From NCBI GenBank assembly GCA_018262975.1, contig JADFDG010000001.1:163372-227371 (forward strand): a stretch of DNA of 64,000 nucleotides, written 5' to 3'. The position numbers and the translations under genes were made by a program. The stretch comes from Gammaproteobacteria bacterium (GTDB lineage: Bacteria > Pseudomonadota > Gammaproteobacteria > Pseudomonadales > JADFDG01). Shown one piece after another: positions 10,878 through 50,431 of this stretch. Under the pieces are notes generated by a model that was given only the letters and a program-made list of their open reading frames with translations, had not been told where the DNA came from and ran no database searches. Numbering within the stretch: position 1 is the stretch's first letter; the number at the start of each line of letters is the position of its first letter.

Positions 10878-12554
10878 TTACTCGCTCTTGCCCATCTGCG
10901 CCTTGATGAGGTCGCCGATGGTCTTCGGACCTTCGGACGGCACATCCTGGTTACGCAGGCCTTCCATTGCTTCACGCTCGTCGCTGACGTCCTTGGCCTT
11001 GATGGACAGGCCAATGGAGCGGTTCTTGCGGTCCAGGGCAACGATCTTGGCCTCGACCTCGGCGCCGACCTTCAGGACGTCACCGGCGTTCTCCACGCGG
11101 TCACGGCTGATTTCGGAGACCTTGATGTAACCCTCGACGTTCTCGGCCAGGGTCACAACCGCACCTTTTGCGTCAACTTCCTTCACTACGCCTTTGACAA
11201 TACTGCCTTTTTCATTGACGGCCGTATAGTCCGCATACGGGTCCTGGGCCAGTTGCTTGATGCCCAGGGAGATGCGGCCGTGCTCGGCGTCGATGGACAG
11301 GACGGTGGTGTCGACTTCCTGGCCCTTGGAGTAGCGACGAACGGCTTCCTCGCCCGCCTCGTCCCAGGAGATGTCGGACAGGTGGACCAGGCCGTCGATG
11401 CCGCCGTCCAGGCCGATGAAGATGCCGAAGTCGGTGATCGACTTGACCGTGCCCTTGATGCGGTCGCCCTTCTTGTACTTGTCGGCGAAGGACTCCCACG
11501 GGTTCTTCTTGCACTGCTTGATGCCCAGCGAGATGCGGCGACGCTCCTGGTCGATGTCCAGGATCATCACTTCCACTTCGTCGCCGATCGACACGACCTT
11601 GGACGGGTGGATGTTCTTGTTGGTCCAGTCCATCTCGGAGACGTGCACCAGGCCTTCGATGCCCGGCTCAAGTTCGGCGAAGCAGCCGTAGTCGGTGAGG
11701 TTGGTGACGCGCGCCTTGACCTTGGTGCCGACCGGGTAGCGGCCGACGATGGCGTGCCACGGATCCTCGCCCAGCTGCTTGAGGCCCAGCGACACGCGAT
11801 TCTTCTCGCGGTCGAACTTGAGGACCTTGACCTGGATTTCCTGGCCGACTTCGACGATCTCGCTCGGGTGCTTGATGCGCTTCCACGACATGTCGGTGAT
11901 GTGCAGCAGGCCGTCGATGCCACCGAGGTCCACGAACGCGCCGTAGTCGGTGAGGTTCTTGACGATGCCTTTGACTTCCATGCCTTCCTGGAGCTGCGAC
12001 AGCAGTTCCTGGCGCTCGGCGCTGTTCTCGGCTTCCATCACGGCGCGGCGCGAAACAACGACGTTGTTGCGCTTGGCGTCCAGCTTGATGACCTTGAACT
12101 CGAGCTCCTTGCCTTCCAGGTGCGTGGTGTCGCGCACCGGGCGGACGTCAACCAGCGAACCCGGCAGGAACGCGCGGATCGTCTCGATGTCGACGGTGAA
12201 GCCGCCCTTGACCTTGCCGTTGATGACGCCACGCACGGTGGTGTTGTCGGCGAACAGCTTTTCCAGCTTGATCCACGACTCGGCACGCTTGGCCTTTTCA
12301 CGCGACAGGCGGGTGTAACCCATGCCGTCGTCGATCGCGTCGACGACCACGGTGACTTCGTCACCGACGCGCACGTCGAATTCACCGCGATCGGTGAGGA
12401 ATTCTGCTTTCGGGATCACGCCCTCGGACTTGAGGCCCGCGTTGACGATGACCCAGTCGTTGTCGATGGCGACAACGCTGCCAGTGACGACGGCGCCACG
12501 ATCGACGTCAAGACCCTTGACGCTCTTCTCGAAGAGTTCGGCAAAACTTTCCAT
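10878..12554 (-). CDS. rpsA: 30S ribosomal protein S1
   Basis: 558 aa with six S1 repeats ([11 protein letters not shown]...[13 protein letters not shown]...). Confidence 0.97.
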
Positions 12555-39738: not shown

Positions 39739-40254
39739 ATGGCCACTTTTGTCCGCATCCTGTTTACCGCCGTTCTGGTGACCCTTGCCGCCACGGGCGC
39801 GCAGGCAGCCGAACAGGCCAGCCGCGACCTGCAGGCACTGAAGCAGAACGTCCTCGACCTCAACCGCGAGCTGACCACCCTCGAGCAGCAATTGCTGTAC
39901 CCGAGCACCCAGGTCGCCATGTTCCTGTCGATCGACGTCGGCACCCCGATCCGCCTGGTCGACATCAACCTCGCCATCGACAACAAGAACGTCGGTTACC
40001 ACTTCTATTCCGACCAGGAATTCCAGGCCCTGACCAAGGGCGGCATCCACCGCCTCTACACCGGCAACCTGTCCAGCGGCGAACACACGCTGCGCGCGAC
40101 CATCACCGGCTACGACCCGCAGGGCAAGGACTACCAGCGCACCACCGCCTACAAGTTCGTCAAGGGCGCCGGCCGCAAGATGATCGAACTGAAGGTGGTC
40201 GACGACGTCGAGACCCGCCAGCACAAGTTCGAATTCAAGGAGTGGAGCGAGTAA
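39739..40254 (+). CDS. Secreted 171-aa protein, first gene of the motor/TPR cluster
   Basis: Signal peptide MATFVRILFTAVLVTLAATGAQA|AEQ, a short coiled coil (LQALKQNVLDLNRELTTLEQQLL), then a beta-rich domain. ATG at 39739 in the frame of track ORF 38110..40254. Confidence 0.7.
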   Translation: MATFVRILFTAVLVTLAATGAQAAEQASRDLQALKQNVLDLNRELTTLEQQLLYPSTQVAMFLSIDVGTPIRLVDINLAIDNKNVGYHFYSDQEFQALTKGGIHRLYTGNLSSGEHTLRATITGYDPQGKDYQRTTAYKFVKGAGRKMIELKVVDDVETRQHKFEFKEWSE

Positions 40255-40300: not shown

Positions 40301-42223
40301 ATGTCGATACGCCGCCGGAAATTCACGCTGCCCGCCGTGGCCGCCCTGGTAGCCGCCGTCGCCTGCAGTGCGGCCATTGGCGCCCCGGCCTCCAAGCGCA
40401 GCTTCGTGCCCGACGATTACGTCGAGCCCCTCGATCCGCCTGCCGTACTGTTCGGCGAGGTGATGTACGAGTACTACAACAACCGCAACCTGCCGGCGAT
40501 CACCCACCTGCTGATCGCCCGCCAGCAGGGCCTGCTGTCCGAGCGCGACGACTACTCGGAAATGCTGCTCGGCGACCTGTACACCAACTTCGGCCTGGTC
40601 GACCGCGCGCAGGCGATCTTCTCGCGCCTGGTCACCCGCGACATCCTCGCCAAGACCCGCAACGAGACCTGGTTCCACACTGCCGAGCTGCAGTACAACC
40701 AGGGCAAGTACGACGAGGCCGCGCGCATCCTCGAGAACAAGATCGAGAACCTGTCGCCGGCCATCGAGAAGGAGCGGCTGGTGCTGCTCGGCAACATCTA
40801 CATCCTGCGCGGCGAGTACCAGCGCGCGGCCGACCTGCTCTCCTCCGTGAAGGCCGATGACGTGGTCGGCGCCTATGCGCTGTACAACGCCGGCGTCGCC
40901 TTCGTCCGCTCCGGCGAGATCGAGCGTGGCATCCCGCTGCTCAAGCGCGTGCGCGACCTGCCGCCGGGTGACGAGGAAACCAACGCCCTCAAGGACCGCG
41001 CGGCACTGGCCGTCGGTTTCACCTGGCTGCAGAAGAACAACCACGACCTGGCGCGCGAATCCCTGCTGACCATCCGCATGGACGGCCCGTTCACCAACCA
41101 GGCGATGCTCGGCCTGGGCTACGCGAACTTCCAGCGCGGCGACTACAAGAAGGCCCTGCCGCTGTGGCTGGAATTGCTGCAGCGCAACACCTCCGACACC
41201 ACCGTGCAGGAAGCGCTGATGCTGGCGCCGCGGGCCTACGAGGAACTCGGCGACCTGCCGCGCGCCCTGTTCGGCTACCGCTACGCTGCCGACACCCTGC
41301 GCGGCGAACTGAAGAAGGTCGAACGCACCATCGTGCGCATCCGCGAGAGCGACTGGATCGACTCGCTGAGCCCCGAGACGGCGAAGGACTCCGCGATCCT
41401 CACCGACCCGCTGGCGCCGGTGACCGGCTACACGCCGGCCAACATCCCGGAAGCGCCCTACCTGTATGCGCTGTTCGCCTCGAACTCGTTCAGCGAGGAC
41501 TACAAGGTCTACCTGGAGCTGAAGCGCATCGAGAAGTTGCTGGACTTCTGGCAGGCACAGTTGCCCATCTACCAGTCCACGCTCGCCCAGCACCGCGTCC
41601 AGCTGGCCACGCTCAAGCCGCGCCTCGACGACACCATCAGCCGCCGCAAGCGCGACGTGGAAGCACTGCGCGCGCAGGTCGCGCCGCTCAAGGCGCGCAT
41701 CGAGAACGCCATCCGCAAGGGCGATCTCGAACAGACCGCGACCCTGCAGCAACTGGCGCAACTGGACGTCGCGCGCGCCATCGAGGCCAGGCTCGGCAAC
41801 AGCACCGGCGCCCAGGCCGAACGCCTGCGGCGGGTCAAGGGACTGGTGATCTGGGACATCGCCGCCAGCGCCACCGCCCAGCAGCAGCAGGCAGTCAAGG
41901 ACATCGAGATCGTGCGCAACGACATCGAGATGGCTGCGTTGCACGTCGAATCGCTGGAGACCCTCCGCACGGACATCCTGCGGCGCATGGGTCCGGAATA
42001 TGACCAGCGCATCGCCGCTGCCGGCGAGCGCCTGCGCGCAATGAAGGATGAAATCACCCAGCGCCTGAAGGCACAGACCGTGGCCCTGCAGAACCAGGCG
42101 CTCGTGGTACTGGCTGAAAACCGCCGCAACCTGGGCGCGCAGCTCGCCGAGACGCACCTGTCCATCGCCCGCCTGCAGGACACCTCGGTCAGCGAGGCCA
42201 TCGAGAAGAGGAAGCGCCAGTGA
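40301..42223 (+). CDS. Exported TPR + long coiled-coil protein (640 aa)
   Basis: N-terminal signal sequence, at least 7 TPR-like repeats in the first ~330 aa, and a heptad-rich, Gln/Arg/Leu/Ala-rich C-terminal ~260 aa. Confidence 0.8.
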   Translation: MSIRRRKFTLPAVAALVAAVACSAAIGAPASKRSFVPDDYVEPLDPPAVLFGEVMYEYYNNRNLPAITHLLIARQQGLLSERDDYSEMLLGDLYTNFGLVDRAQAIFSRLVTRDILAKTRNETWFHTAELQYNQGKYDEAARILENKIENLSPAIEKERLVLLGNIYILRGEYQRAADLLSSVKADDVVGAYALYNAGVAFVRSGEIERGIPLLKRVRDLPPGDEETNALKDRAALAVGFTWLQKNNHDLARESLLTIRMDGPFTNQAMLGLGYANFQRGDYKKALPLWLELLQRNTSDTTVQEALMLAPRAYEELGDLPRALFGYRYAADTLRGELKKVERTIVRIRESDWIDSLSPETAKDSAILTDPLAPVTGYTPANIPEAPYLYALFASNSFSEDYKVYLELKRIEKLLDFWQAQLPIYQSTLAQHRVQLATLKPRLDDTISRRKRDVEALRAQVAPLKARIENAIRKGDLEQTATLQQLAQLDVARAIEARLGNSTGAQAERLRRVKGLVIWDIAASATAQQQQAVKDIEIVRNDIEMAALHVESLETLRTDILRRMGPEYDQRIAAAGERLRAMKDEITQRLKAQTVALQNQALVVLAENRRNLGAQLAETHLSIARLQDTSVSEAIEKRKRQ

Positions 42224-45200
42224 CGTTTGCTGCCCGCCATCGCCTGCCGTTCCGGCTGACCCCGCTGGCCCTTGCCGCACTGCTGGCAGCCGGTTGCGGC
42301 ACCACCGGAAGCACACCAACGGGCACGGCCGCCACGCAGTCGGCACAGAGCCGTTATGCATCGCAGACACTGGCCGACCTCGAGAGCGTCGAGGTGGAAG
42401 TCCAGCAAGGCAGCATCGAGGAATCCGCGTCCATCGAAGGTGCGCTGGAGAGCTACAAGCAGGCCGTGCAGTTGTTCAACGACCCGGAAAAGCGCGTCGA
42501 GTCACTGCGCCGCATGGCCGACCTTGCCATGGCCGCATCCACCGAGAAGGAAGGTGAAGCCCCGGTTTCGCTGGAAGAAAAGCCGGTGGTGCCGGCGCAG
42601 CTTTCCGAGTCCGAGGAAGTCAAGCTCGACCGCGACATCGACGCCATGCTGTTCAAGAGCTTCATGGAAGGCGCCACCAACGCCAAGTCGCAGGAAGAGA
42701 TGTACCGCATGCTCGACCTCGCCGGTGGCATCGCCCCGGAACTCGAGGGCACCGAGCTGGCGGCCAACTATGACACCGCGGTCATCCTCTACCAGTCGGT
42801 GATCAAGAACACCAAGGATTCGAAGGAAAAAGCCGAGGCCTATTACCTGCTGGCCAAGGCCTATGACATCGGCGGCAAGCACGAGGAGTCCGTCGCCACC
42901 CTCAAGGAACTCGGCCGCCTTTACCCGGACAGCACCTTCTACCTCGAGGCGCAGTTCCGCCTGGGCGAGAGCTACTTCAGCGAGGGTGAGTACGACCTCG
43001 CCACCGCCGCCTACTCCGAGGTCATCCAGGCGGGCGCGACGACCGCATTCTTCGAGCAGTCCATCTACAAGCGCGGCTGGAGCCAGTACAAGGTCTCCGA
43101 GTACGAGAAGGCGCTGGTCGACTTTTTCAGGTTGATTGACCTGGTGTCTGCCCAGCCGGCCCAGGGCAAGGACGCGGACCGCAACGCCCGCCTGCTCGAC
43201 GACACCTTCCGCGTCGCCAGCATGTCGTTCAACAACCTCGACGGCGCGAAGTCGGTGAAGGCCTGGTTCGCCCGCAACGGCCACAAGCCGTACGAGAACC
43301 GCGTGTACCGCGCGCTGGGCGACATCTACGTCAAGCAGGAACGCTACGCGGACGCCGCCGAGACCTACGAGGCGTTCGTCACGCTGTACCCGGATGACGA
43401 CCTGGCGCCGGAATTTTCCTCCAGCGCGATCAAGGCGCTGCAGGACGGCGGCTTCCCGACCCAGGTACTGCCGGCCAAGGAACGCTTCGTGAAGGCCTAT
43501 GGCCTCGACAGCGCGTACTGGAAGAAGCATGCAAAGCAGCGCCAGGAATACCTGCCGCTGCTCAAGTCGCACCTGCTCGACCTGGCACGCCACTACCACG
43601 CCACCGCGCAGAAGTCCGGCGACAGCGCCGGCTTCCTGGTGGCCGCGGGCTGGTACGAGCAGTTGCTGCGCACCGACCCGGCTGATGCCGGCGCGGCCAC
43701 CGTCAACCAGCTGTACGCCGAGGCGCTGTTCTCCGGCAAGGAATTCGCGCGCGCGGTGCGTGAATTCGAACGCACGGCCTACGAATACGCCGGCTACGAC
43801 AAGGCCTCCGAATCGGCCTACTTCGGCCTGGTGGCCTACCAGGCGTGGAGCGACAACCTCGAGAAGGACCAGGCGCGCGCCGCCGAACTGCAGCAACTGC
43901 TCGGCCGCAAGATCGACGCCGGCCTGAAGTTCGCGCGCACCTTCCCGTCGCACGAAAAGACCCCGAAAGTGCTGCAGAGCATCACCGAGGACCAGCTGGC
44001 ACGGAAGGATGTGCCCGGCGCGGTCGCCACCGCGGGTATGCTGGTGTCGCTCAACCCGCCGGCATCCATCGACCTGCAGAAGTACGGCTGGCAGACCATC
44101 GCCAACGGCGAATTCGACCTCGGCCGCCACAAGGTCGCGGAGTTTGCCTACGGCAAGGTGCTGGGCTTCCAGGACCTGACGCCGGCCGAGCGCAAGACCT
44201 ACAACGAGCGACTGGCCGCCAGCATCTACAAGCAGGGCGAGAAACTCATCGCCGAGGGCAAGGAGCTGGAAGGTGCGCAGGAATTCCTGCGCGTGGGCAC
44301 CGTGGTGCCGGACGCCGAGGTGCGCGCCAACGCCGAGTTCGATGCCGCCACCATCTTCCTGAAGAAGGAGCAGTACACGGCTGCCATCCCGGTGCTCGAG
44401 CAGTTCCGCACGCGCTGGCCGAAGAACACCCTGGCCGACACCATCCCCGACAAGCTGGCGCTCGCCTACGAGAAGACCGGCAACTGGGCCGGCGCCGCGC
44501 GCGAGATGGAAACCATCCACGACGTCAACCTGAAGGCGCAGCCGGAACTGGCCCGCGTGGCCTTGTGGCAGGCCGCCGAGCTCACCGGGAAAGCCGGCAA
44601 CGAGGATGGCGAGCTGCGCCTGTACGCGAAGTACGTGGCCGAGAACCCGGCACCGCTCGAAGCGCGCATGGAAGCCCAGTACCGCTTGCTGAAGATCCAC
44701 GAAAAGCGTGGCGACCTGAAGGCACGCGACACCATGCTGGCGGCACTGTCCGCGGGTGCGCGCGGCGCCGGCGGCGATGCCACGCCGCGCACCAACTACC
44801 TGGGCGCATTCGCATCGTTCACGCTGGCCGAGCCCACGTTCCTGCGCTTCACCGAGTACAAGTTGCGTGCGCCGCTGAAGACGTCGCTGGCCGAGAAGCG
44901 CCGCCTGATGCAGTCGGCGCTCGACGCTTACTCCACCACCGCGAAGCTGGGCGTCGCCGAGTACACGTCGGCAGCCCAGTTCCGCACCGCCGAGGTCTAC
45001 CGCATCCTTGCCGCCGACCTGATGTCGTCGGAGCGACCCAAGGGCCTCGACGAACTTGAACTCGAACAGTACGACCTGCTGCTCGAGGAACAGGCCCTGC
45101 CCTTCGAGGACAAGGCGATCGAGCTGTACACGATCAACGCCAACCTCGTGAAGCAGGACGTCTACGACGAGTGGGTCAGGAAGAGCATCAAGGCGCTGGC

Positions 45201-45267
45201 GGTCCTGCAACCGGGTCGCTACGGCAAGAAGGAACAGGCGGAAGACTATGTCGATGTCATTTACTGA
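42220..45267 (+). CDS. Large TPR lipoprotein (1015 aa)
   Basis: Lipobox LLAAGC. TPR / YbgF-like repeats run throughout. The GTG start overlaps the upstream stop (GTGA). Confidence 0.82.
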   Translation: MTFAARHRLPFRLTPLALAALLAAGCGTTGSTPTGTAATQSAQSRYASQTLADLESVEVEVQQGSIEESASIEGALESYKQAVQLFNDPEKRVESLRRMADLAMAASTEKEGEAPVSLEEKPVVPAQLSESEEVKLDRDIDAMLFKSFMEGATNAKSQEEMYRMLDLAGGIAPELEGTELAANYDTAVILYQSVIKNTKDSKEKAEAYYLLAKAYDIGGKHEESVATLKELGRLYPDSTFYLEAQFRLGESYFSEGEYDLATAAYSEVIQAGATTAFFEQSIYKRGWSQYKVSEYEKALVDFFRLIDLVSAQPAQGKDADRNARLLDDTFRVASMSFNNLDGAKSVKAWFARNGHKPYENRVYRALGDIYVKQERYADAAETYEAFVTLYPDDDLAPEFSSSAIKALQDGGFPTQVLPAKERFVKAYGLDSAYWKKHAKQRQEYLPLLKSHLLDLARHYHATAQKSGDSAGFLVAAGWYEQLLRTDPADAGAATVNQLYAEALFSGKEFARAVREFERTAYEYAGYDKASESAYFGLVAYQAWSDNLEKDQARAAELQQLLGRKIDAGLKFARTFPSHEKTPKVLQSITEDQLARKDVPGAVATAGMLVSLNPPASIDLQKYGWQTIANGEFDLGRHKVAEFAYGKVLGFQDLTPAERKTYNERLAASIYKQGEKLIAEGKELEGAQEFLRVGTVVPDAEVRANAEFDAATIFLKKEQYTAAIPVLEQFRTRWPKNTLADTIPDKLALAYEKTGNWAGAAREMETIHDVNLKAQPELARVALWQAAELTGKAGNEDGELRLYAKYVAENPAPLEARMEAQYRLLKIHEKRGDLKARDTMLAALSAGARGAGGDATPRTNYLGAFASFTLAEPTFLRFTEYKLRAPLKTSLAEKRRLMQSALDAYSTTAKLGVAEYTSAAQFRTAEVYRILAADLMSSERPKGLDELELEQYDLLLEEQALPFEDKAIELYTINANLVKQDVYDEWVRKSIKALAVLQPGRYGKKEQAEDYVDVIY

Positions 45268-46078
45268 CCGCGCTCCGCGCCTGCTGATCGCCGCGACGCT
45301 GGCCGCGGCGTTGGCGGCCTGCAGCAGTGCGCCGAAGCAACAGGGTGGCGACACCGCCGGCGTCGACAACGTGAACGTGATCAAGCCCGTGCGCGCCCAG
45401 GCCGCCGCGCCCGCCGCGGTTGCCAGCGACACCGCCCACGTGACCACCGTGACCGCCAGTCCGCAGGCGCAGGCCGCCGCGCAGCAGGCGGCACCCGAGT
45501 ACTTCGCGGCCATGCAGCTGTTGCAGGCCGGCAAGCTCGACGAGGCACAGAAAGCGTTCGCTGCGCTGGCGGTGAAATTCCCGAGCCTGTCCGGCCCGGT
45601 GGTCAACCAGGCGCTGATCGCGCTGCGCAACGAGCGCTGGGACGACGCGCTGGCACTGGCCGACCGCGCGCTCAAGGTCAATGCGCGCAACCCGTTCGCC
45701 TGGAACATGCGCGGCATGGCACTGCGCGAGCAAGGCAAGTTCGCCGACGCCCGCAAGTCCTATGAGAGCGCGCTGGCCATCGACCCCAATTACGCCAAGG
45801 CACACTTCAACCTCGGCGTGCTGGCCGACCTGTACCTGCAGGACCTGCCGCTGGCACTGGCGCACTACGAGAAGTACCAGTCGCTGCAGCGCAAGCCCGA
45901 CCAGGCCGTAGGCAACTGGATTGCCGACCTGCGCAACCGCCTGGGGCTGCCCGCCCCGGCAGCTCCCGCAGCTCCGGCAGCACCTGCACCGGCAGCAGCG
46001 CCGGCCGGCGGCGAATCCGCGCCGGCGGCGGGCGACCCCGAAACCGGCACCGATACCATCCCGGCCCAGGCAGGGTGA
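45248..46078 (+). CDS. TPR lipoprotein (276 aa) with Pro/Ala-rich C-terminus
   Basis: Lipobox LAAC, 3-4 TPRs (NPFAWNMRGMALREQGKFADARKSYESALAIDPNY...) and a PAPAAPAAPAAPAP tail. The start overlaps the upstream gene by 20 nt. Confidence 0.8.
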   Translation: MSMSFTDRAPRLLIAATLAAALAACSSAPKQQGGDTAGVDNVNVIKPVRAQAAAPAAVASDTAHVTTVTASPQAQAAAQQAAPEYFAAMQLLQAGKLDEAQKAFAALAVKFPSLSGPVVNQALIALRNERWDDALALADRALKVNARNPFAWNMRGMALREQGKFADARKSYESALAIDPNYAKAHFNLGVLADLYLQDLPLALAHYEKYQSLQRKPDQAVGNWIADLRNRLGLPAPAAPAAPAAPAPAAAPAGGESAPAAGDPETGTDTIPAQAG

Positions 46079-46083
46079 ACGAC

Positions 46084-46395
46084 ATGAACAGACTCGCACG
46101 CATGGCCACCGTCCTCGCCGCCCTCCTCGCCGTCCCGGCGTGGGCAGCCGACCCGCAGCCCGCCGCCAAGCCGGGCAGCAACGGCAAGGCAGACGCGCTC
46201 TCCACCAACGTCATCGGCTCCCAGGAAGCACCCACGGTGCTCAACGTCGTGCCGTGGAAGGACAAGGAAGTGAAACTGGAGAAGAAATCTCCGACCACCT
46301 CCATTCTCAACCAGGTCCTGCAGCCACTGGATCGTGACGTACTGCGCCGCGAGGTGCAGTACTTCCGCAGCCTGCAGGAAAACAAGACCAACTGA
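46084..46395 (+). CDS. Small secreted protein (103 aa)
   Basis: Signal peptide MNRLARMATVLAALLAVPAWA|ADP. An alternative GTG at 46075 overlaps the upstream stop (GTGA). Confidence 0.65.
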   Translation: MNRLARMATVLAALLAVPAWAADPQPAAKPGSNGKADALSTNVIGSQEAPTVLNVVPWKDKEVKLEKKSPTTSILNQVLQPLDRDVLRREVQYFRSLQENKTN

Positions 46396-46482: not shown

Positions 46483-47160
46483 ATGGCAACTGCAGCCGAC
46501 CCCGGTTTCATGATGAGCAGCGTCCGCTTCTTCCAGGATGGCGGCCCCTGGATGTGGCCCATCCTCGTGGTATTCCTGCTCGGCATTGCCCTGGTCGTCG
46601 AACGTTTCATTTACCTGCAGATGGTGACCGGCAAGAACAGCCGCGTGTGGGGTGAGATCTACCCGCTGCTTGCCAAGGGCCAGTTCAAGCAGGTCATGGA
46701 AATTGCCAAGGGCAACGACACCTTCATTTCCGGCATCATCGGTGCCGGCCTGACCCGCGCCACCATTACCCGCCGCCACGAGGATATCGGCCTGGCGATG
46801 GAGGAGTCGCTGATGGAGGTCATGCCGCGACTCGAGCAGCGCACCCCTTACATCGCCACGCTGGCCAACATCGCCACCCTGCTTGGCCTGCTCGGCACCA
46901 TCATGGGCCTGATCGATGCGTTTACCGCCATCGCCAGTGCCGACCCGGCACAGAAAGCAGCCATCCTGTCGTCGTCGATTTCGGTCGCGATGAACACCAC
47001 GGCGTTCGGCCTGATTGCCGCCATCCCGCTGATGCTGGCCTTCACCTACCTGCAGTCGAAGACGGCGAAAGTCGTCGAGAGCATGGAGATGGCCTCCGTC
47101 AAACTGCTGAACATCTACCGCCAGCTGTCCGCTGCCTCCGAGAAGAACCAGGGTGACTGA
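46483..47160 (+). CDS. MotA/TolQ/ExbB-family proton channel
   Basis: Three TM segments and the conserved LLGLLGTIMGLI...TTAFGLIAAIPLMLAFTYL core. AGGAG lies 6 nt upstream of the ATG. Confidence 0.9.
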   Translation: MATAADPGFMMSSVRFFQDGGPWMWPILVVFLLGIALVVERFIYLQMVTGKNSRVWGEIYPLLAKGQFKQVMEIAKGNDTFISGIIGAGLTRATITRRHEDIGLAMEESLMEVMPRLEQRTPYIATLANIATLLGLLGTIMGLIDAFTAIASADPAQKAAILSSSISVAMNTTAFGLIAAIPLMLAFTYLQSKTAKVVESMEMASVKLLNIYRQLSAASEKNQGD

Positions 47161-47219: not shown

Positions 47220-47762
47220 ATGAGTTCACGCAAGAAACCGCGTGTAACCGACGTCGAGCTGAACATCACGACCTTCATGAACCTGATGGTCGTCCTGATT
47301 CCGTTCCTGCTGCTCGACGCGGTATTCACGCAGATGTCGATATTGCAGCTGACGCTGCCCTCTTCGGCCGAGGCACCGCCTTCGCCGGAGGAGGACCGCA
47401 AGCCGTTCTCGCTGGAAGTGCTGATCTACAAGAACCGCTATGAGCTGGTGGACCGCAAGTCCGAATCCGTGCTCTCGGTGATTCCCGTTGCCGCCGACGG
47501 CAAGCACGATACCGCCAAGCTTCACGAAACGCTGGTGCGCCTGAAGGGCCGCGCCGACGAGTTCGGTGAGCCGGTACGCGACATTGCCATCCTCTGCGAG
47601 AAGGACACGCCCTACGAGATCCTCATCATGACGATGGATACCGTGCGCGTGACCGATACCATGGTGAACGGCACGTCGATCAAGAAGGAGCTGTTCCCGG
47701 ACATCTCCATCGGCACGGCACCGGCCGACCAGTCGGGTGTGGCACCGGGAGGTGCGGCATGA
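47220..47762 (+). CDS. ExbD/TolR-family protein 1 (Asn at the conserved TM Asp position)
   Basis: Single N-terminal TM (ELNITTFMNLMVVLIPFLLL) and an ExbD-like periplasmic domain. GGAGG RBS. Confidence 0.85.
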   Translation: MSSRKKPRVTDVELNITTFMNLMVVLIPFLLLDAVFTQMSILQLTLPSSAEAPPSPEEDRKPFSLEVLIYKNRYELVDRKSESVLSVIPVAADGKHDTAKLHETLVRLKGRADEFGEPVRDIAILCEKDTPYEILIMTMDTVRVTDTMVNGTSIKKELFPDISIGTAPADQSGVAPGGAA

Positions 47763-48289
47763 GCCTGCAGAAGCCTACTGCCAAGCAGCGGCGCATGCAG
47801 CGCCGCGCCAAGCACCTGGCACCGACGACGTTGAGCCTGACGTCCCTGATGGACATCTTCACGATCCTGCTGTTCTTCCTGCTGGTGAGCGTTTCGACGT
47901 CGCAGAAAATGCCCGACGAGCGCTACATCCTGCTGCCGAAATCCAGCGCCGAGGAGTTGCCCAAGGAGACGCTCACGGTCGAGGTCAGCGGCAACACGAT
48001 CATCGTGCAGGGCCAGCTGATTGCCGAAACCACGCAGGTCGCCGCCCAGGAAGGCGTATTGATCGCCAAGCTCAAGGAAGAACTGGACTACCAGGCCGCC
48101 AAGTCGGCAGCGCCGCTCAATGAGGCCGGCGTTCCGGAGCGGGAAGTCACGATCCTCATGGACAGCAAGGTTCCCTATGCCGTCCTCGACAAGATCATGA
48201 AGACCTGCATGGTGACCGAGTACAGCAAGATCTCGTTCGCGGTGATGCAGGACAAGAAGAAGCCGGCCACCGGCGGGGAGGGCTCCTGA
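47759..48289 (+). CDS. ExbD/TolR-family protein 2 (conserved TM Asp present)
   Basis: TM segment LSLTSLMDIFTILLFFLLV with Asp32. ATGA overlap with the upstream gene; GGGAGG RBS. Confidence 0.85.
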   Translation: MSLQKPTAKQRRMQRRAKHLAPTTLSLTSLMDIFTILLFFLLVSVSTSQKMPDERYILLPKSSAEELPKETLTVEVSGNTIIVQGQLIAETTQVAAQEGVLIAKLKEELDYQAAKSAAPLNEAGVPEREVTILMDSKVPYAVLDKIMKTCMVTEYSKISFAVMQDKKKPATGGEGS

Positions 48290-49254
48290 TGAGCAGCCCA
48301 CGTCCCGCCATGCCCTCGCGCGGCATTGCCTTTGTTTCCGGCTACCTGCCCTGGGATACGGTCGGTTCCGAGGAAAAACGTGCGCGCTGGCTCCTGTTGG
48401 CCGCCCTGTTGCTCGCGTTCGTGCTGCTCGTGGTGCTGCAGAGCATTACCCTGCCGCCGGTCGACCGCGCGCAGGCCGAGAAGATGCCCGAACGGCTCGC
48501 CAAGCTGGTGATGGAGAAGAAGAAGGAACCGCCGCCGCCGCCGCCCAAGGAAGAAGTGGTGAAGGAAGAGGAAAAGCCCAAGGAAGAGAAGCCGAAGGAG
48601 GAAAAGCCGGTCGAGGAGAAGGTGCAGAAGGCCCGTGAAAAGGCCAGCAAGGCACTGGCCGAGGCCAAGGAAGAACTCGCGGCCATGCAGGACCTCGCCG
48701 CGGCATTCGACTTCGGTGCAGACCAGCCGCTGTCCAAGGCCGGCGCAGCCAGTCCCTCGGAAGGCGCGCTGTCGCGCGACCTGATCACCAGCCGCACCGG
48801 CAAGGGTTCGGGTGGCGTGAACATCGGCACCGCGTCCAGCGGTGGCGGTGGCGCCGGCGTGGCCGGTGGCGGCAAGCTCGGCGGTGCGCAGGTTGCCAAG
48901 GTGGATTCCAACATCACCGAGGGCGGCATCGGCGCGACGCGCAAGAGCGCCAGCGGCAAGCTGGAGCGTACCGAGGAAGAGATCCGCCGCGTGATGGACC
49001 GCAACAACGGTGCCTTGCAGGCGATCTACCAGCGTGCGCTGCGCAGCAACCCGACGCTCAAGGGCGCCATCGTCCTGCGCCTGGTGATCGCGCCGGACGG
49101 CTCGGTGACCTCGGCTGACCTGGTTTCCAGCGAACTGGGCGACGCGGAGACCGAGAAGAAGCTGCTCACCCGCATCAAGGCCATCAACTTCGGCGCCATC
49201 GAGGGCGTGGCCGTGTGGGATGACAAGTACACGCTCAACTTCTTCCCGAGCTGA
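48289..49254 (+). CDS. TonB-like energy transducer with AgmX/PglI-type C-terminal domain (321 aa)
   Basis: N-terminal TM (WLLLAALLLAFVLLVVL), a Pro/Glu/Lys-rich linker (KKKEPPPPPPKEEVVKEEEKPKEEKPKEEKPVEEK), a Gly-rich region, and a TonB_C-like C-terminus (ALRSNPTLKGAIVLRLVIAPDGSV...). TGATG overlap with the upstream gene. Confidence 0.82.
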   Translation: MSSPRPAMPSRGIAFVSGYLPWDTVGSEEKRARWLLLAALLLAFVLLVVLQSITLPPVDRAQAEKMPERLAKLVMEKKKEPPPPPPKEEVVKEEEKPKEEKPKEEKPVEEKVQKAREKASKALAEAKEELAAMQDLAAAFDFGADQPLSKAGAASPSEGALSRDLITSRTGKGSGGVNIGTASSGGGGAGVAGGGKLGGAQVAKVDSNITEGGIGATRKSASGKLERTEEEIRRVMDRNNGALQAIYQRALRSNPTLKGAIVLRLVIAPDGSVTSADLVSSELGDAETEKKLLTRIKAINFGAIEGVAVWDDKYTLNFFPS

Positions 49255-49278
49255 CGTGTAGTGCGTGTGTAACACCGA

Positions 49279-49308
49279 CAAGGGGCGCTGCGGCGCCCCT
49301 TGTTTTTT
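49279..49308 (+). terminator. Rho-independent terminator ending the motor operon
   Basis: CAAGGGGCGC, loop TGCG, GCGCCCCTTG, followed by TTTTTT. It lies 25 nt after the stop at 49254. Confidence 0.85.
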
Positions 49309-49348
49309 GCGGTATCTTGTCGTCGTTCAGAGACGGCCGGAGTCCGCC

Positions 49349-49867
49349 ATGCGCCACACCACCCTGTTTTCCCGTGCCTGCCTGCTTGCCGCGGTCGTGG
49401 GCCTCACCGCCTGTATTCCGCCACCGGCGGACATCGGCGTCGACTACTCCGGCCCCATCTACCGCAAGCCCGGCGCCGATGCACCGCGCACGCAGTCCTC
49501 GTCACTGCCGGCACAACCGGCCGGCAGCGAGTGCGCGAAACTCGAGGAAACGCCGACCCGCAAGCGCAGCGCCTGTGGCGTGCGCGAGATCATGACGCGC
49601 TACAACGGCGGCCTGCAGATGCTTTACCAGCGCCGACTGGTCGACAACCCGCGCCTGCAGGGACAGGTCGTGTTGCGCCTGAACATCGCCGCCGATGGCA
49701 GCGTGCAGGCCTGCGACATCGCCTCCAGCACCCTCAACGACAGCGAACTCGACCGGCAGATCGCCGCCTACGTGCGCACCATCAACTTCGGGGCGCTCGA
49801 AAACGTACCGGCCTGGGCTGACACCTACACGCTGGAACTGACGCCGCCGGTGGCCGGCAAGCGCTGA
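49349..49867 (+). CDS. Lipoprotein carrying a second AgmX/PglI-type TonB_C-like domain (172 aa)
   Basis: Lipobox GLTAC. The C-terminal ~90 aa align by eye with the C-terminus of the 321-aa protein (LYQRRLVDNPRLQGQVVLRLNIAADGSV...TINFGALE...TYTLEL). ATG at 49349 with GGAG upstream. Confidence 0.75.
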   Translation: MRHTTLFSRACLLAAVVGLTACIPPPADIGVDYSGPIYRKPGADAPRTQSSSLPAQPAGSECAKLEETPTRKRSACGVREIMTRYNGGLQMLYQRRLVDNPRLQGQVVLRLNIAADGSVQACDIASSTLNDSELDRQIAAYVRTINFGALENVPAWADTYTLELTPPVAGKR

Positions 49868-49876
49868 GCCACGCGT

Positions 49877-50431
49877 TCAGCCGGGCGGCGGCAGGAAGCG
49901 CCCGGCCGGCAATGGCCAGGGCTGGCCATAATGCGCGGCCAGCCGCGCGCCCAGTTGCGCCGCGCGCGGCGGCAGCTGCCCGTCGACGCAGCGCAGCACC
50001 TCGGCATGCACCGCACGCCACAGCGAGCCTTCATCGAGCGGGTCCTCGCAATCGAGGTTATCCATGCTGACGCGAAAGGACTTGCCGCACGCCGCGGTGA
50101 GCACCCATTCCACCGCCTGGGGCCTCGCTTCCACGCGCTCGAACTCCGCTTGCCGGGCGCCACTGCGGCCATCGGGGTCGTACCAGTAACCGTAGTCGAC
50201 CTGCCGGCGCCGTTCGCTGCCGGCCACGCACCAGTGAGCGATCTCGTGCAGCGCACTCTGGAAATAGTCGTGGCGGAACACGATCTCGTTCCAGCCGTGC
50301 TCGTCGGCGGCCGGGACGTAGAGGGGCTCTTCGCCGCCAGCGACCAGCCGCACGCGATGCGATTGCGCAAACGTGGCGGCAAAGATCGCCGCCAGCTCAT
50401 CGGCATCGAAGCGGTCAGCACCCATCGACAT
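49877..50431 (-). CDS. epmC: Elongation factor P hydroxylase
   Basis: Strong resemblance to E. coli YfcM/EpmC as I recall it (HEIAHWCVAG, DYGYWYDPDGR, PQAVEW, MDNLD). ATG at 50431. Confidence 0.85.
   Translation of the reverse strand: MSMGADRFDADELAAIFAATFAQSHRVRLVAGGEEPLYVPAADEHGWNEIVFRHDYFQSALHEIAHWCVAGSERRRQVDYGYWYDPDGRSGARQAEFERVEARPQAVEWVLTAACGKSFRVSMDNLDCEDPLDEGSLWRAVHAEVLRCVDGQLPPRAAQLGARLAAHYGQPWPLPAGRFLPPPG

Follow-up and report, generated by a model that had tools for sequence, protein, structure and literature searches.

Organization of the locus

The window analyzed here is a stretch of 64,000 nucleotides (nt) from contig JADFDG010000001.1 of assembly GCA_018262975.1, which belongs to an uncultured gammaproteobacterium of the order Pseudomonadales. 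Its forward strand carries a cluster of nine genes of the Agl/Glt type, the last of which encodes a 321-amino-acid (aa) GltG-like transducer (48289-49254). On the same strand follow an intrinsic terminator at the operon end (49277-49308), a leader (49309-49348) and the gene for a 172-aa lipoprotein (49349-49867), which repeats the C-terminal domain of the transducer. This lipoprotein gene, the subject of the present analysis, is a real, conserved, lineage-specific accessory.

Both open reading frames (ORFs) are present in the window as first annotated. The 321-aa protein comprises a short cytoplasmic N-terminus with a conserved LPW, a single hydrophobic transmembrane helix (W34-I53; 48388-48447), a Pro/Glu/Lys-rich linker (residues 77-110; 48517-48618), a conserved periplasmic segment and an AgmX/PglI C-terminal domain (48970-49251), so that the membrane anchor and linker described for it in the initial annotation are both found. 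The lipoprotein gene starts with an ATG at 49349, 7 nt past a GGAG, and encodes a signal peptide (49349-49411), the predicted lipidated residue Cys22 (49412-49414), an N-terminal motif (IPPPADIGVDYSGPIY; residues 23-38, 49415-49462) followed by a variable linker, two further cysteines, Cys62 (49532-49534) and Cys76 (49574-49576), and a diverged AgmX/PglI domain (49568-49849).

The two proteins share a GltG/GltJ-type C-terminal domain

The domain common to the 321-aa protein and the lipoprotein spans approximately 95 aa. BLASTP aligned residues 220-320 of the former with residues 60-166 of the latter at 49 identities out of 107 (46%, E=1e-30), the domain proper being free of gaps, which agrees with the ungapped 40-45% identity that had been estimated by eye over the last ~90 aa. 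Judged by this alignment, the likeness of the two C-termini exceeds chance by far. Both proteins also pass the AgmX/PglI C-terminal domain model of NCBIfam (NF033768, curated cut-off 40 bits), the 321-aa protein with 63.4 bits and the lipoprotein with 54.3 bits. Both C-termini match in addition the model of M. xanthus GltG (NF033760), and in the 321-aa protein this match covers the entire periplasmic part (residues 67-306, model positions 375-633, E=1.2e-14). Its score, 53.8 bits, is far below the equivalog cut-off of 650 bits, which applies to the full length of GltG with its cytoplasmic FHA domains; the alignment is confined to the periplasmic part, and the cytoplasmic part of the 321-aa protein has only about 33 residues.

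The same domain had previously been described as TonB_C-like. The lipoprotein misses the gathering score of Pfam TonB_C (PF03544) with 19.0 against 24.6 bits and the 321-aa protein does not match that family, while TIGR01352 (tonB_Cterm, cut-off 27.1 bits) is passed marginally by the lipoprotein (27.3 bits) and is missed by the 321-aa protein (17.6 bits). A structural model of the lipoprotein generated with AlphaFold2 (AF2) from a 72-sequence alignment reaches a pLDDT (local confidence) value >90 over residues 75-165, where the chain runs helix-helix-strand-strand-helix-strand. The top 25 Foldseek matches of this model in the Protein Data Bank (PDB) are C-terminal domains of TonB, HasB, FusB and TolA, with probabilities of 0.99-1.0 and TM-scores of 0.5-0.63 on the target; the model has the three-stranded sheet packed on helices that characterizes the TonB/TolA C-terminal fold and can be superposed on it. 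A search of PDB sequences with the lipoprotein profile returned only weak TonB matches (E of at least 0.27) and no close relative of solved structure. Alignment and profiles of the two domains and the structure prediction of the lipoprotein concur on a significant similarity, the NF033768 family and a TonB-type fold. The term TonB_C-like is correct for the fold, whereas the family is the GltG/GltJ (AgmX/PglI) branch.

The 321-aa protein does not qualify as a classical TonB transducer, as its W34-I53 helix contains no His (SHLS-type motif) and no receptor gene occurs in the cluster. In its cytoplasmic part, an L-P/A-W motif (residues 20-23, 48346-48357), of which L20 and W22 are invariant in 20 diverse homologues, is a candidate contact to the cytoplasmic face of the motor.

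An invariant N-terminal motif and a cysteine pair distinguish the lipoprotein

The reading of the second copy as a lipoprotein holds: its lipobox is L-T-A-C, and Cys22, predicted to be lipidated, is invariant in 28 homologues as well as in the more distant homologue P0150. Across the 28 sequences, the best conserved part of the protein is the mature N-terminus, C-IPPPA-DIGVDYSGPIY, which surpasses the duplicated domain in this respect. Eleven of its residues (C22, P24, P26, D28, I29, G30, D32, Y33, S34, G35 and P36) are invariant, and the motif has the general form DIGxDYSGP-I/L-Y/F. Also invariant in these sequences are Cys62 and Cys76, which lie 13 residues apart and flank a basic PTRKRS just before the domain; the segment between them probably forms a disulfide-closed loop. 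Motif and cysteine pair are both kept in P0150, an orthologue from the equivalent genomic site that is only 34% identical. The cysteine pair is missing from the parent protein.

The N-terminal motif was not seen elsewhere in the window or in the retrieved loci, and a protein search with the N-terminal 61 residues of the lipoprotein gave no candidates. In the orthologue of locus L010, about ten extra residues (KLMLPPLLL) separate the lipobox Cys from the PPPSDIGTDYSGP motif (about 11080-11160), which indicates that the distance between motif and lipid anchor is not fixed. Position +2 is Ile, Leu or Val in the lipoprotein homologues and positions +3 and +4 are Pro, Gly or Ala. Compared with the N-terminus of E. 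coli TolB (EVRIVIDSGVDSGRPIGVVPF, residues 22-41), the motif shows 7 identities, without gaps and in register from mature position +1; composition-preserving shuffles of the TolB peptide yielded at least 6 identities in 6.5% of trials. The N-terminal segment of TolB is bound by TolA through beta-strand augmentation (PMC8928145).

The lipoprotein gene is a lineage-specific duplicate of the gltG-like 3' end

A scan of one genome per species retrieved 32 loci encoding a relative of the 321-aa protein, 12 of which were inspected for each gene in turn; these 12 contain the cluster genes wherever the sequence reaches far enough. Searches with a domain hidden Markov model detected a second copy of the domain directly downstream only in the clade of uncultured Gammaproteobacteria to which the window belongs (L005, L006, which equals L001, L007, L009, which equals L003, L010 and L011). 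Seven lineages have the paralog placed after the GltG-like gene and before epmC; they are represented by the window, L005, L006, L007/L011, L009, L010 and the more divergent L038, in which the lipoprotein is 34% identical and the adjoining GltG-like protein 62% identical. The lipoprotein gene is therefore syntenic with the cluster among relatives and, by this test, is not the chance neighbor that the initial annotation had allowed for. All 25 Alcanivoracaceae loci that carry the same cluster are devoid of the paralog; three of them (L029, L034 and L035) keep the downstream epmC and matE genes yet have no paralog. In one sub-lineage of the window's own clade (L008, L045/L046 and L047), both the lipoprotein gene and epmC are absent, most likely through a single deletion that removed the two together. 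There the GltG-like gene leads straight to matE (L008 4263-4370; L045 6915-6918; L047 6942-7080).

In a neighbor-joining tree of 151 domains, those of the lipoproteins form one group on a long stem, sister to the GltG-type domains of the clade. A library of 1.84 billion representatives contains a single cluster with a match to the lipoprotein at E<1e-30. By origin, the lipoprotein gene is a partial tandem duplicate, specific to this lineage, of the gltG-like gene's 3' end, inserted just past the ancestral terminator and ahead of the convergent epmC. This copy gained a lipoprotein signal peptide, the N-terminal linear motif and the Cys-x13-Cys loop, then diverged quickly under purifying selection.

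The ratio of nonsynonymous to synonymous substitution rates (dN/dS) of the lipoprotein gene is 0.19-0.45, and its ORF is intact in approximately 30 sequences from different samples. For the same genome pairs, the mean pairwise identity is 58% for the lipoprotein domains and 85% for the GltG-type domains, and the former evolve about three times faster than the parent domain. Given this asymmetry, and the motif and the cysteine pair that are the lipoprotein's own, the two copies are not symmetric twins. Twenty positions are shared at 90% or more by both families and comprise the core, a DG turn, an FG and the W-x-D-x-Y-T edge strand. Nine positions, mostly on helices, are fixed differently between the families; the switches include C76/E, G77/E, G88/A, R96/A, Q137/K, Y141/R, V142/I and T144/A.

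The intergenic region retains an ancestral terminator

The 94-nt intergenic region between the two genes folds at -48.8 kcal/mol (z=-5.1). A consensus terminator scan overlooked the hairpin at 49277-49308, which was revealed by folding and consists of a 12-bp G+C-rich stem (49277-49304) with a 4-nt loop, followed by a T-run to 49308. The hairpin is kept with compensatory changes in related loci, whether the paralog is present or not. Because it also occurs in loci without the paralog, this terminator represents the ancestral end of the operon, directly behind which the new gene stands. The strong terminator had earlier been taken to give the lipoprotein gene its own transcription unit; the terminator itself is confirmed but that deduction is not, since an ancestral terminator is no sign of a dedicated unit, and a consensus scan found no sigma-70-type promoter for the lipoprotein gene. 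A separate transcription unit for the gene is plausible.

The leader (49309-49348) contains a GCGGTAT(C/G)TT box (GCGGTATCTT; 49309-49318) that is kept in six related loci, 31-36 nt before the ATG. A second predicted hairpin (49309-49347) overlaps this box and pairs the GGAG ribosome-binding site. In L038, the T-run is separated from the ATG by only ~20 nt, hence read-through of the terminator may contribute to expression there. On the far side, a gap of 9 nt separates the end of the lipoprotein gene from that of the convergent epmC (49865-49879), a tight spacing which suggests that the new gene was wedged between the old terminator and epmC. The orthologues called in L001 overlap by ~75 nt.

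The upstream genes correspond to the Agl/Glt core complex

The stops and starts of the nine same-strand genes that precede the lipoprotein gene mostly overlap. The first gene encodes a 171-aa secreted protein (39739-40254) with a signal peptide, a coiled-coil N-terminus and a beta-rich C-terminus, for which no family match was obtained. The genes called in L001 and L003 served to set its frame, and it was found upstream in most loci whose sequence extends that far, including every one that was examined. The protein is highly conserved, sharing long identical stretches with its L001 and L003 homologues; in the mechanical ORF list, the gene is masked within a 714-aa ORF and an off-frame 251-aa ORF. 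Three proteins with tetratricopeptide repeats (TPR) follow. They are a 640-aa protein (40301-42223) with TPR matches in Pfam, conserved in all loci checked; a 1015-aa lipoprotein (lipobox LAAGC; 42220-45267), recognized from its TPR matches and N-terminal sequence; and a 276-aa lipoprotein (lipobox LAAC; 45248-46078), which besides TPR matches gives a GltE-like hit below cut-off (NF033758 gliding_GltE, E=1.6e-7). The first two are designated GltC-like and GltD-like by size and position rather than by direct alignment to the M. xanthus proteins. Next comes a 106-aa secreted protein (46075-46395) with a visible signal peptide, which is conserved according to tblastn in all loci checked and matches no family.

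The motor genes complete the cluster. An AglR-like proton channel of the MotA/TolQ/ExbB family (46483-47160; PF01618, E=5e-28) is followed by two AglQ/S-like proteins of the ExbD/TolR family (47220-47762, PF02472, E=7e-11; 47759-48289, PF02472, E=3.3e-15), and the stop of the second overlaps the start of the 321-aa gene by 1 nt.

According to Luciano et al. 2011 (PMC3169522), a core complex made of aglR, aglQ, aglS, gltC, gltD, gltE, gltG and one extra gene constitutes a conserved gammaproteobacterial cluster; it is described there as the ancestor of the Myxococcus gliding machine, and its function as undefined. The window cluster corresponds to this definition, with one MotA/TolQ/ExbB protein, two TolR/ExbD proteins, a GltG-like protein with a TonB-like end and three TPR proteins; the 171-aa and 106-aa proteins are two candidates for the additional gene. 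Gene content, gene order and protein sizes agree with that study, in which GltG homologues of 321-334 aa and GltD homologues of 952-964 aa are reported from Marinobacter, Saccharophagus, Cellvibrio and Hahella, and GltC homologues of 648 aa from Marinobacter and of 660 aa from Cellvibrio. No later assignment of a function to the core complex was found in the literature searched. A TonB iron-uptake system was considered and rejected given the lack of a receptor, the Pfam TonB_C scores under threshold and the Glt-like nature of the cluster. The sole RNAs detected by Rfam and tRNA scans of the window were tRNA-Gly and tRNA-Glu near 31 kb, which are unrelated to the locus.

A fusion protein and stand-alone relatives of the domain

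Locus L003 encodes a 298-aa orthologue of the lipoprotein, P0002 (10001-10897, equivalent to L009 11052-11945), that bears a second C-terminal domain. This additional domain is 68% identical to the GltG domain of its own genome and 39% identical to the first domain of P0002 itself; the GltG-type head was duplicated anew in this lineage and joined to the lipoprotein. Such a fusion argues that both types of head act in the same place.

Other stand-alone proteins with an AgmX/PglI domain were retrieved from metagenomes (P0029, P0221, P0272 and P0244). Like the lipoprotein, they consist of a signal peptide or lipobox followed by the domain, but they are not orthologous to it and have neither the DIGxDYSGP motif nor the cysteine pair. 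Their contigs are short or show no visible motor cluster, as for P0244 in L042. A further protein of 175 aa, P0160 (L040 85-612), carries a GltG-type domain behind a short hydrophobic N-terminus on a contig of only 1.1 kb; here the transducer head may have been truncated or duplicated once more, independently of the other cases.

Possible roles of the lipoprotein

The interpretation we favor, tentatively and with a probability of roughly 0.45, is that the lipoprotein is an outer-membrane-tethered accessory subunit providing a second head to the Glt-like machine, with its N-terminal strand as a docking motif. The ExbB/ExbD-like motor would drive the inner-membrane GltG-like transducer, while the lipoprotein, from the outer-membrane side, would present a second TonB_C-like module whose flexible tether of ~50 residues would let it reach the periplasmic TPR scaffold. 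Docking of the module would then take place on this scaffold, namely the GltD-like protein, or on a partner's beta-strand, and the invariant N-terminal strand could be a "box" taken by beta-strand augmentation in the manner of TonB boxes and of the TolB N-terminus. The docking proposal derives from a likeness to the predicted binding of GltJ to GltD beside GltG in Myxococcus. In the AlphaFold-based model of the M. xanthus proteins, the N-terminal domain of GltD is bound on one face by the C-terminal domain of GltG and on the opposite face by that of GltJ, and a strand of GltF augments the GltG sheet (PMC11761067).

Several points weigh against a second head at the outer membrane. Sorting of the lipoprotein to that membrane is probable on a single ground, which is that no Asp occurs at position +2, and the resemblance of the motif to TolB is weak, a lead rather than a result. 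In the AF2 model of the lipoprotein, the N-terminal motif is not docked on the domain of the same chain. In the model of P0002, confidence is good for domain 2 but not for domain 1 or the N-terminal motif, MAFFT having placed the GltG-like sequences on one domain and left the other without alignment coverage. The beta3 edge strand (W-x-D-x-Y-T-L) is similar in both families, which fits competition for the same ligand too. Furthermore, GltG-type domains show no consistent difference between genomes with and without the paralog and hence no signal of co-evolution, and the lack of the lipoprotein gene in L008, L045/L046 and L047 implies that the machine works without it.

Other arrangements of the same parts can be envisaged. 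The lipoprotein might itself be the outer-membrane target of the core motor, in which case the DIGxDYSGPIY segment next to the lipid anchor would be grabbed through beta-augmentation by the GltG-like domain, driven by the proton-motive force, while the lipoprotein's own domain would hold the TPR scaffold; we consider this unlikely. A direct heterodimer of the inner-membrane and lipoprotein domains, suggested in the initial annotation, could likewise bridge the envelope in trans, as C-terminal fragments of TonB can dimerize. The common fold of the two domains and, by Rosetta-stone logic, the natural fusion of a lipoprotein-type with a GltG-type domain in P0002 speak for such a bridge, but the GltG-type domains exhibit no co-evolving differences according to the presence of the paralog and the P0002 model holds no usable inter-domain information. 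Moreover, whether dimers of the TonB C-terminus matter physiologically is debated, and we regard the heterodimer as improbable.

The lipoprotein domain could also serve as a competitive decoy or regulator that would bind the ligand of the GltG-like domain, whether a beta-strand or a TPR surface, and would set how frequently the transducer engages; it would stay at the outer membrane, with expression either separate or via terminator read-through. Conservation of the beta3 edge strand and hydrophobic core in both families, with the 20 positions shared at 90% or more, is in line with this idea, as is the dispensability of the gene in some lineages, and its location behind a strong terminator allows its dosage to depart from the operon's. 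On the other hand, the fast, asymmetric divergence and the nine family-specific switches fixed on helices speak against a decoy, which would not need a new invariant N-terminal motif or a Cys loop either, and the presence of both domain types on one outer-membrane tether in P0002 would be odd for an antagonist; such a role thus appears doubtful. Little probability is likewise given to a functionally unrelated neighbor, whose domain would have been co-opted for another envelope task (e.g., binding of TolA or peptidoglycan via the motif or the basic loop) and would adjoin the cluster only by birthplace. The terminator between gene and operon, the absence of the gene from part of the clade, the resemblance of its N-terminus to the TolA box of TolB and the stand-alone secreted or lipoprotein forms that occur in other places where no motor cluster is visible (for instance P0244 in L042) would all suit this scenario, but the position is retained in a lineage where identity has dropped to 34%, and P0002 re-fuses the lipoprotein domain with a GltG-type domain. 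Finally, a decaying duplicate or an annotation artefact, to which the faster evolution compared with the parent domain might point, is practically excluded by the many intact ORFs, the dN/dS values and the invariance of motif, cysteine pair and lipobox.

Relation to known systems and significance

M. xanthus GltG (PglI) and GltJ (AgmX) belong to the same C-terminal domain family, NF033768, as the two window proteins, and the Agl-Glt system of that bacterium has a TolQ/TolR-type motor alongside, as in the window. Its machine also contains two such C-terminal domains, on GltG and GltJ (PMC11761067). In contrast to GltG and GltJ, the window proteins lack FHA, ZnR and GYF domains in the cytoplasm, and the second C-terminal domain is carried by a lipoprotein instead of a second inner-membrane protein, following an independent gammaproteobacterial duplication. 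Also unlike M. xanthus, the window cluster includes none of the gliding genes gltA, gltB, gltH, gltK and cglB. With TonB and TolA the 321-aa protein shares the succession of transmembrane helix, Pro/Glu/Lys linker and C-terminal domain, encoded beside ExbB/ExbD-type genes; however, no gene for a TonB-dependent receptor, TolB or Pal lies near the window cluster. None of the TonB/TolA structures matched is a lipoprotein, unlike the 172-aa protein, and literature searches found no lipid-anchored TonB-fold domain. TolB and Pal resemble the lipoprotein in their location on the outer-membrane side (predicted for the latter) and in a short N-terminal motif, with the 7 in-register residues common to TolB. 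The lipoprotein has neither a beta-propeller nor an OmpA-like domain, and the resemblance is short and weakly significant.

The Agl/Glt core complex and the fold of the domain were already known. A lipoprotein-tethered copy of the transducer head with its own invariant motif appears to be newly described: the passages of Luciano et al. 2011 on which our comparison draws, from the text and the supplement, mention no lipoprotein paralog (PMC3169522). Its practical value is limited, the organism being uncultured and the gene an accessory that was lost in sister lineages, although the invariant N-terminal motif offers a concrete peptide for binding studies.

The Agl/Glt core complex occurs widely among Gammaproteobacteria, and the gliding and spore-coat machines of Myxococcus evolved from it. 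Myxococcales extended this core by GltJ, a second inner-membrane protein that ends in the same domain, while the lineage of the window independently added a lipoprotein copy, once fused so as to unite both types of domain. Two TonB-like heads consequently appear to be a recurrent solution. Should the lipoprotein prove to be the outer-membrane target of the motor, it would constitute the first defined contact between the motor of the ancestral core complex and the outer membrane.

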